From: a virus
Taxonomy: Duplodnaviria; Heunggongvirae; Uroviricota; Caudoviricetes
DNA: 4,719 nucleotides
Virus record (IMG/VR): IMGVR_UViG_2671180378_000013
Direction: 5' to 3' (one strand)
Of this stretch, positions 3,001-4,719 are shown one piece after another; positions within the stretch are counted from its first letter, which is position 1, and each line of letters opens with the position of its first letter. A program made the position numbers.

Positions 3001-4719
3001 GGACGGAGGCGGACTGCATTTTCTGCGCTGGGAGCTGATGGAGGTGTCTGCCGTCACCGTGCCCGCGAATGCGGAATGCACCATCCGGACCATTAAATAT
3101 TTCGACCGCCCGTTTTCTGCCGCGTCCGGCAACCGGAAACCGGTGGTGAAAATCGCATCTTCTGCCGGCGCTTCGGCACAGTCAATAACCTCTTTTCATA
3201 AGGAAAAGTCAGCAATGAATACTGGTGAACAGATTAAAAGTTTTGAAAACAAGCGTGCGGCGCTGGCAGCCTCCCTTGAGGAGATCATGAACAAAGCCGC
3301 AGAGGAAGGCCGCACACTGGATGTGGAAGAGGAAGAGCACTACGACAACACCGCAGCGGAAATCCGTCAGGTGGATGCGCACCTGAAGCGTCTGCGTGAA
3401 CTGGAAACCAGTAAGGCCGCCACGGCACAGCCGGTGAAACAGGCCGGTAACGGGAATGTGGCCACGGTGGCTTCAGCGCCGGTGATCCGTGTTGAGCAGA
3501 AACTGGAGAAGGGGATTGGTTTCGCCCGCTTTGCCAAATCACTGGCCGCGGCTAAAGGTGTCCGCTCTGAAGCCCTGGAAGTGGCCCGTCGTCAGTATCC
3601 GGATGACAGCCGTCTGCATCATGTCCTGAAATCGGCGGTGGGGGCAGGGACCACCACGGACCCGCAGTGGGCAGGCAGCCTGTCTGAATACCAGGAATAT
3701 GCGCAGGACTTTATTGATTACCTGCGTCCGCAGACCATTATCGGGCGATTTGGTCAGGGCGGGATCCCTGCACTTCGTCAGGTGCCGTTCAATATCCGCG
3801 TGCATGCCCAGGTGTCCGGTGGTGCTGCCGGCTGGGTGGGTGAGGGTAAGGCCAGACCCCTGACGAAGTTTGATTTTGAATCCATCACCTTCAGTCATGC
3901 GAAAGTGTCGGCCATTGCGGTACTGACGGAAGAATTGATCCGTTTTTCCAGTCCGGCTGCTGATGCACTGGTCCGTAATGCGCTGGCGGAAGCGGTGGTG
4001 GCGCGTCTGGACACAGACTTTGTGGACCCGAAAAAAGCGGCGGTGGCGGATGTCTCCCCGGCGTCCATCACCCATGATGTGAAGGGCACGGCATCAACCG
4101 GTAACCCGGATGCGGATGCCGAGGCCGCGTTTGGCCAGTTTGTGACGGCAAATCTGCAGCCCACCGGTGCGGTCTGGCTGATGTCCAGCACCAATGCCCT
4201 GGCGCTGTCCATGCGTAAAAATGCGCTGGGGCAGAAGGAATATCCGGACATGACCTTGCTGGGCGGGACCTTCCAGGGGCTGCCGGTGATTGTCTCCCAG
4301 TATGTGGGTGACCAGCTGGTACTGGTGAATGCACCGGATATTTATCTGGCTGATGACGGCGGTGTGGCGGTGGATATGTCCCGTGAAGCGTCACTGGAGA
4401 TGCAGTCTGAACCGACCAGCGACAGCAGCACACCGTCACCGGTGGAACTGGTCTCCATGTTTCAGACCGGCAGCGTGGCCATCCGTGCGGAGCGCTGGAT
4501 CAACTGGCGTCGTCGCCGTACCGCGGCAGTGGCGGTGATCACCGGTGTGAACTACGGAACTGCGTCCGGTGGCTGAGTCTGATGAGGAGGGCGGGAGGCG
4601 TGCGCCCCCCGTAACAGGTTATGGCAAAGATCCGATATCTGCAGGGCACGCATGATGCCCGGGCCGGGGATATCCGCTGTCCCCTATACACATCTCCGAG
4701 CCCACGAGAACGAGGCAGA

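Follow-up and report, generated by a model that had tools for sequence, protein, structure and literature searches.

The DNA examined here, referred to as the window, is a stretch of 4,719 nucleotides from a Caudoviricetes record (IMGVR_UViG_2671180378_000013), and the question that it raises is whether its last 43 bases belong to the phage at all. An earlier note, made from the sequence alone, had taken them for an untrimmed Nextera adapter with a 25-nt exact match and an index-like octamer behind it, and had extended its doubts to the bases nearby, to the homopolymer-rich 5' end and to any open reading frame (ORF) that runs into the tail.

Identity of the 3' terminal sequence

When the window was screened by local alignment with Illumina adapter pieces, the 34-nt Nextera i7-side read-through sequence CTGTCTCTTATACACATCTCCGAGCCCACGAGAC aligned to positions 4677-4710 of the + strand at 31 of its 34 bases, the mismatches being T>C at 4682, T>C at 4684 and C>A at 4710. 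With up to three mismatches allowed, this was the single match across the window. Its exact core, TATACACATCTCCGAGCCCACGAGA, is 25 nt long (4685-4709) and spans the mosaic end and the Read-2 primer site, confirming the exact match reported earlier. TruSeq R1 and R2, P5, P7 and the i5-side Nextera arm gave nothing above background (local scores of 13 or less) on either strand of the whole window, 5' end included. The adapter sequences used are those that Illumina has published, and the 34-mer and the index table were confirmed in papers: the string CCGAGCCCACGAGAC serves as a Nextera trimming target (PMC6460022), and the Nextera indices are as tabulated in PMC7589761.

The complete tail, CTGTCCCCTATACACATCTCCGAGCCCACGAGAACGAGGCAGA (4677-4719), can be parsed as CTGTCCCCTATACACATCTCCGAGCCCACGAGAA-CGAGGCAG-A. 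Positions 4677-4695 of the + strand hold the reverse complement of the 19-nt Tn5 mosaic end (CTGTCTCTTATACACATCT) with 17 of 19 bases intact (T>C at 4682 and 4684), the synthetic sequence beginning at 4677, directly behind the tagmentation cut. The mosaic end is at once followed, in the order of a Nextera read-through, by the complement of the Nextera Read-2 (i7-side) primer site (CCGAGCCCACGAGAC; 4696-4710, +), which matches at 14 of 15 bases, the exception being C>A at 4710. The octamer CGAGGCAG (4711-4718, +), rightly called index-like, stands in the place of the i7 index and agrees with N710 (CGAGGCTG) at 7 of 8 bases, with one substitution; each of the remaining Nextera indices tested shows at least four mismatches in register. 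The final base, A4719 (+), fits the start of ATCTCGTATGCC as base 1 of the P7 complement ATCTCGTATGCCGTCTTCTGCTTG; this single base, at which the contig ends, is consistent with P7 but not diagnostic. Taken together, adapter, N710 and A match 4677-4719 at 39 of 43 positions, with four substitutions.

Because the window copy is imperfect and includes one P7 base, the index is assigned at 7 of 8 positions only, and N710 is the probable assignment. The artefact could instead carry index N703 (AGGCAGAA), the read tail then having gained two bases, which we consider quite improbable. AGGCAGA at 4713-4719 equals the first seven bases of N703, an index that is also frequent in contaminated contigs among the matches listed, but N703 needs two insertions where N710 needs two in-register substitutions, and substitutions account for the remaining errors of the tail. 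Errors in Illumina reads are mostly of this kind.

Absence of the tail from independent copies of the locus

Matches to the window are present in 1255 of 5426 complete E. coli genomes; the listed alignments all span query positions 1-4676 and end there, the best with 99.7% identity. In a sensitive search with 4640-4719, the prophage-locus matches listed cover query 1-37 only (window 4640-4676), and no record covered 80% of that query; the continuation CTGTCCCC... past base 4676 is not in the listed prophage-locus matches, all of which end at 4676. Ninety-four deposited phage records match 1-4676, the closest being Stx1a-converting phages (99.6%), and a search for the exact junction sequence in IMG/VR viral contigs returned no match. 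The check proposed in the earlier note, independent sequence of the same locus, is thus answered by listed matches from about 1,250 genomes and by 94 phage records, which lack the 43 nt and stop at 4676.

The boundary can be placed to the base. Across it the window reads ...GGGGATATCCG followed directly by CTGTCCCCTATACACATCTCCGAGCCCACGAGAACGAGGCAGA, and the normal path across 4676/4677 is TGATGTGG; relatives agree with the window through G4676 and diverge from 4677. The best genome (E. coli O103:H2 PV16-126) is identical through G4676 and agrees at 13 of 43 bases over 4677-4719 in an ungapped comparison, which was used for the adapter tail because a global MAFFT alignment misplaced it. All five aligned relatives, complete and draft and of both local sequence types, continue TGATGTGGCACAGCCGTGTGCGG / TGATGTGGCACAGCC / TGATGTGGCACAG..., and the true downstream content in relatives is the rest of a 73-codon ORF and then the portal gene. 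The downstream context, which had been called unknown, is therefore missing from the contig but recoverable from relatives.

These results bear on the idea that the adapter likeness is a chance match within genuine, divergent phage sequence. The four mismatches are all that speaks for it. Against it, no match to CTGTCTCTTATACACATCTCCGAGCCCACGAGAC was found in 200 dinucleotide-preserving shuffles of the window, the analytic chance expectation for the 34-mer match is about 5e-12, and the adapter similarity begins exactly where homology to all relatives ends. We regard chance similarity as vanishingly improbable, and it was rejected on the shuffles, the listed genome alignments that stop at 4676 and the search with 4640-4719.

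Contig context and typical placement

An exact-protein look-up of the window TerL returned four NCBI contigs, the identical protein being present on three besides that of the window. The remaining one, LOGF01000005.1 of assembly GCA_001606815.1, is a complete contig of 4719 bp that is byte-identical to the window, as expected from the earlier suggestion that the window is a whole small contig. The adapter constitutes the last 43 bases of this contig, on the + strand and pointing outward. A literature search for the accession GCA_001606815.1 found no paper on the assembly.

We scanned the species genomes of GTDB and the IMG/VR contigs for the 25-nt core, which is present in at least 120 stretches of each; the 240 stretches listed hold 253 occurrences. 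Among these listed matches, 247 of 253 occurrences lie within 60 nt of a locus end, and all 247 terminal ones point outward, on the + strand at 3' ends and on the - strand at 5' ends, with a median distance of 14 bases from core to end. Since 247 of the 253 listed cores are terminal and outward, the configuration of the window is standard for a Nextera artefact. In other public contigs the octamers that follow GAGAC are real Nextera indices, N710 being the commonest among the matches listed. The 43-mer alone matches 85 phage records whose hosts are unrelated, among them Escherichia, Listeria, Salmonella, Streptococcus and Pseudomonas, a spread that is as expected for the signature of a synthetic contaminant.

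Could the 43 bases nevertheless be real strain DNA, brought into the prophage at 4676/4677 by a transposon derived from Tn5 or as part of an engineered mosaic-end construct? Bases 1-19 of the insert do resemble the Tn5 mosaic end, and genomes do hold transposon ends. The next 15 bases, however, are the synthetic Illumina Read-2 primer site and are followed by a Nextera index rather than by IS50 or cargo sequence; the ends of natural Tn5 are well established, and the tail is called non-IS50 on that basis. Moreover, hundreds of bacteria, archaea and viruses with no relation to one another carry the same string at contig ends, pointing outward, the contig stops 43 bases into it, and the insertion is in none of the approximately 1,250 locus-bearing genomes among the listed alignments. 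We consider real insertion extremely improbable, and a natural Tn5/IS50 insertion was rejected on the passage from mosaic end to primer site and index to contig end and on the relatives, which are without an insertion here.

We conclude with near certainty that 4677-4719 is untrimmed Illumina Nextera (Tn5 tagmentation) read-through that the assembler joined to one end of a draft E. coli contig. No biological reading of the adapter is plausible, and contamination of this type is ordinary and well known. The adapter identity and the absence of the tail from independent copies of the locus thus uphold the earlier view that the 43 nt are not biology and should be masked. To describe 4676/4677 as a novel junction or an insertion would be false because the 43 bases are an artefact.

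The adapter core turns up widely in public data, in MAGs, in isolate drafts and in IMG/VR contigs (our loci L009-L248), and an example among phage records is MK327946.1, positions 76717-76759. A few cores are internal, as in the gene annotated as baseplate hub subunit and tail lysozyme of Escherichia phage vB_EcoM_G4507. In NZ_CP054388.1, the RefSeq chromosome of E. coli 1517k, which is labeled complete, a full Nextera read-through lies inside the annotated kdpE gene (2622601-2622667; 409-475 of our locus L007) and also holds the index GCGCAGTA, which we take to be one base off N719, and the whole P7 complement. The corresponding protein, WP_250910240.1, reads ...GYRVM and then ends in the adapter-encoded residues PVPYTHLRAHETRSNIVCRLLLGDKNS, and is a chimeric KdpE record in RefSeq.

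Proposed origin of the artefact

The tail could have arisen in a few steps. Tn5 would have cut prophage DNA between 4676 and 4677 and attached the mosaic-end adapter, leaving in the library a fragment that was shorter than the reads. The forward (+) read would then have passed beyond the insert, through the mosaic end, the Read-2 primer site and the i7 index (N710 most likely), as far as base 1 of P7. Adapter trimming may have been absent, or the error-laden adapter may have escaped it, and at a low-coverage, repeat-tangled contig end the assembler would have taken the adapter read over the true path.

Two sets of counts relate to this scheme. The adapter carries 4 errors in 43 bases, compared with 4 differences over 1-4600 relative to the comparison sequence H1, and because of this contrast we infer a low-quality 3' read tail; support for the tail presumably comes from one or a few reads, and low base quality probably lies behind the 4 errors in 43. 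Short-read assembly graphs break at repeats. Copies of the locus per genome have a median of 2 and range up to 8, and since the locus is thus a repeat, it is likely that multiple prophage copies helped break the assembly.

Gene content of the genuine sequence

Bases 1-4676 are genuine and represent an HK97-type head and packaging block of the kind found in Stx-converting lambdoid phages. On the + strand they hold the 3' end of a phage HNH endonuclease gene (1-63), terS for the terminase small subunit (354-917; Terminase_2), terL for the large subunit (914-2575; TerL_ATPase and TerL_nuclease) and a gene for a prohead protease (Peptidase_S78) fused to an HK97-type major capsid protein (Phage_capsid; 2639-4576). 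The Pfam matches in terS, terL and the protease-capsid gene are all above the curated cut-offs. In complete genomes the block is part of Stx1a and other lambdoid prophages, where stx, lysis genes and the HNH gene lie upstream of it and a 73-aa ORF, the portal gene and connector genes lie downstream.

The 5' part of this conserved 73-codon hypothetical gene, located between the capsid and portal genes, occupies 4621-4676 (+; 18 codons and 2 bases), where the adapter cuts the gene off. Codons 1-18, MAKIRYLQGTHDARAGDI, are genuine, but the third base of Arg19 is adapter and the frame then reads RCPLYTSPSPRERGR, where relatives read RDVAQPCAEV... On the - strand, a spurious ORF of 50 codons (4539-4691) takes its GTG start from inside the adapter. 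The warning that ORFs entering the adapter are invalid there therefore applies to both the + strand ORF from 4621 and the - strand ORF at 4539-4691. The recorded gene calls for LOGF01000005.1 comprise only terS, terL and the capsid gene, and hence a chimeric protein was apparently not deposited from this contig.

The portal gene, which overlaps the 3' end of the 73-aa ORF, is recorded as a frameshifted pseudogene in two independent complete genomes (10788-13371 of L001; from 612 onward in L006). Rather than decay, this repeated label might point to a genuine programmed frameshift or to a convention of annotation.

The 5' end and single-base suspects

The earlier note had proposed artefactual ends in the plural, and this description holds for the 3' end but not for the 5' end, which is without adapter and shows homology to relatives from base 1. 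Position 1 of the contig corresponds to position 6000 of L001 (the PV16-126 locus) and to position 2519 of L002 (draft BGID01000188.1). The base just upstream differs between prophage copies, with ...GCCA before GACC in L001, L249 and L250 and ...GCCG before GACC in L002. That the contig starts one base after a SNP suggests that assembly broke off at a repeat variant and that the end is not artefactual.

The homopolymer runs near the 5' end (G9, A7 and C7, between 75 and 123) have the same lengths as in the closest complete genomes, and no indel relative to H1 occurs over 4676 bases, which speaks against the errors that had been suspected there. The wider concern about consensus errors is reduced to two single substitutions, C4607 and T99. 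T99 (+), directly after the A7 run, is a singleton where the three closest complete genomes checked have C, and nothing else separates the window from them within the first 300 bases; T99 may be either a true SNP or an error. T99 was judged from a 300-base search and the three fetched genomes; a megablast search with window 60-140 returned nothing, a likely result of low-complexity masking of the homopolymer runs.

Three further observations concern this region. The G-run in the spacer between the HNH gene and terS is G9 in the window (75-83) and in L001 and G11 in BGID01000188.1 (2593-2603 of L002), the latter reflecting either natural length variation or a homopolymer error of that draft, and L003 has an indel relative to the window at the 5' end. 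The intergenic region between the HNH gene and terS also contains a cluster of direct and inverted repeats centred on GTTAAC (155-283), including a perfect 18-nt palindrome at 156-173 (half-sites CAGTTAACA and TGTTAACTG) and the further repeats AAATGTTAAC at 230 and 253 and GTTAACATTTGC at 272. Judged by sequence, these repeats are plausible candidates for terminase or cos-region binding sites.

The hairpin after the capsid gene

A 9-bp hairpin (4597-4617) lies just after the capsid stop codon. Two natural variants, of the GGCG-TGCG-CCTCCC and GGCG-CGAG-CTTCCC types, both keep the stem and fold at -19.2 and -17.3 kcal/mol, and none of 200 shuffles folded as well. Since both variants preserve the pairing, the element that separates the capsid gene from the 73-aa ORF is probably a conserved stem with a terminator-like or regulatory role. 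Window positions 4601-4620 belong to the second natural (B-type) variant, and the upstream flank is of the A type.

Within this hairpin, C4607 (+) is suspect: the base is T in all five aligned relatives, and with C the stem is disrupted (-14.4 kcal/mol, z-score -0.8). The substitution, T>C in C-rich surroundings, resembles the two T>C errors of the adapter and is probably a consensus error from the adapter read or reads, with a private SNP as a lesser possibility. The last 99 genuine bases have an exact match in no complete genome, the best being 98%. We consider it unlikely that the A-type capsid 3' end joined to a B-type hairpin with C4607 represents a real, unsampled recombinant as opposed to a read error or a chimera of prophage copies.

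Consequences for use of the record

The value of these results is one of data hygiene. The 43 bases at 4677-4719 of LOGF01000005.1 should be masked, and neither the partial ORF from 4621 nor the antisense ORF at 4539-4691 should be translated across them. Elsewhere the contig can be trusted (99.7% identity to a complete genome and no indels), with caution at C4607 and T99. The Nextera contaminant is widespread in public assemblies.

Comparison with known systems

The tail shows the mosaic end and Read-2 primer site in the order of Nextera and Nextera XT read-through (CTGTCTCTTATACACATCTCCGAGCCCACGAGAC, i7 index, ATCTCGTATGCCGTCTTCTGCTTG), then a probable index and a base that fits P7, and is likewise terminal and outward. 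It differs from standard read-through in having 4 substitutions in 43 bases and in stopping after one P7 base. The likeness to a natural Tn5/IS50 end is confined to the first 19 bases of the insert; the 19-nt mosaic end was engineered from the ends of Tn5. Unlike a Tn5/IS50 element, the window has a primer site and index in place of IS50 sequence and has no second end, and the relatives are without the insertion. Upstream of the junction, the comparison is with the head and packaging module of Stx-converting lambdoid phages, to which 1-4676 is 99.6-99.7% identical (Stx1a_11KH263, Stx1_699 and the Stx1a prophage of O103:H2 PV16-126) and with which the locus shares the gene order HNH, terS, terL, protease-capsid fusion, 73-aa ORF and portal. 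The window differs from these phages by a few SNPs and, at 4601-4620, by a mosaic switch between variants of the post-capsid hairpin; functionally, 1-4676 is undistinctive among them, an ordinary and well sampled stretch of Stx phage DNA.
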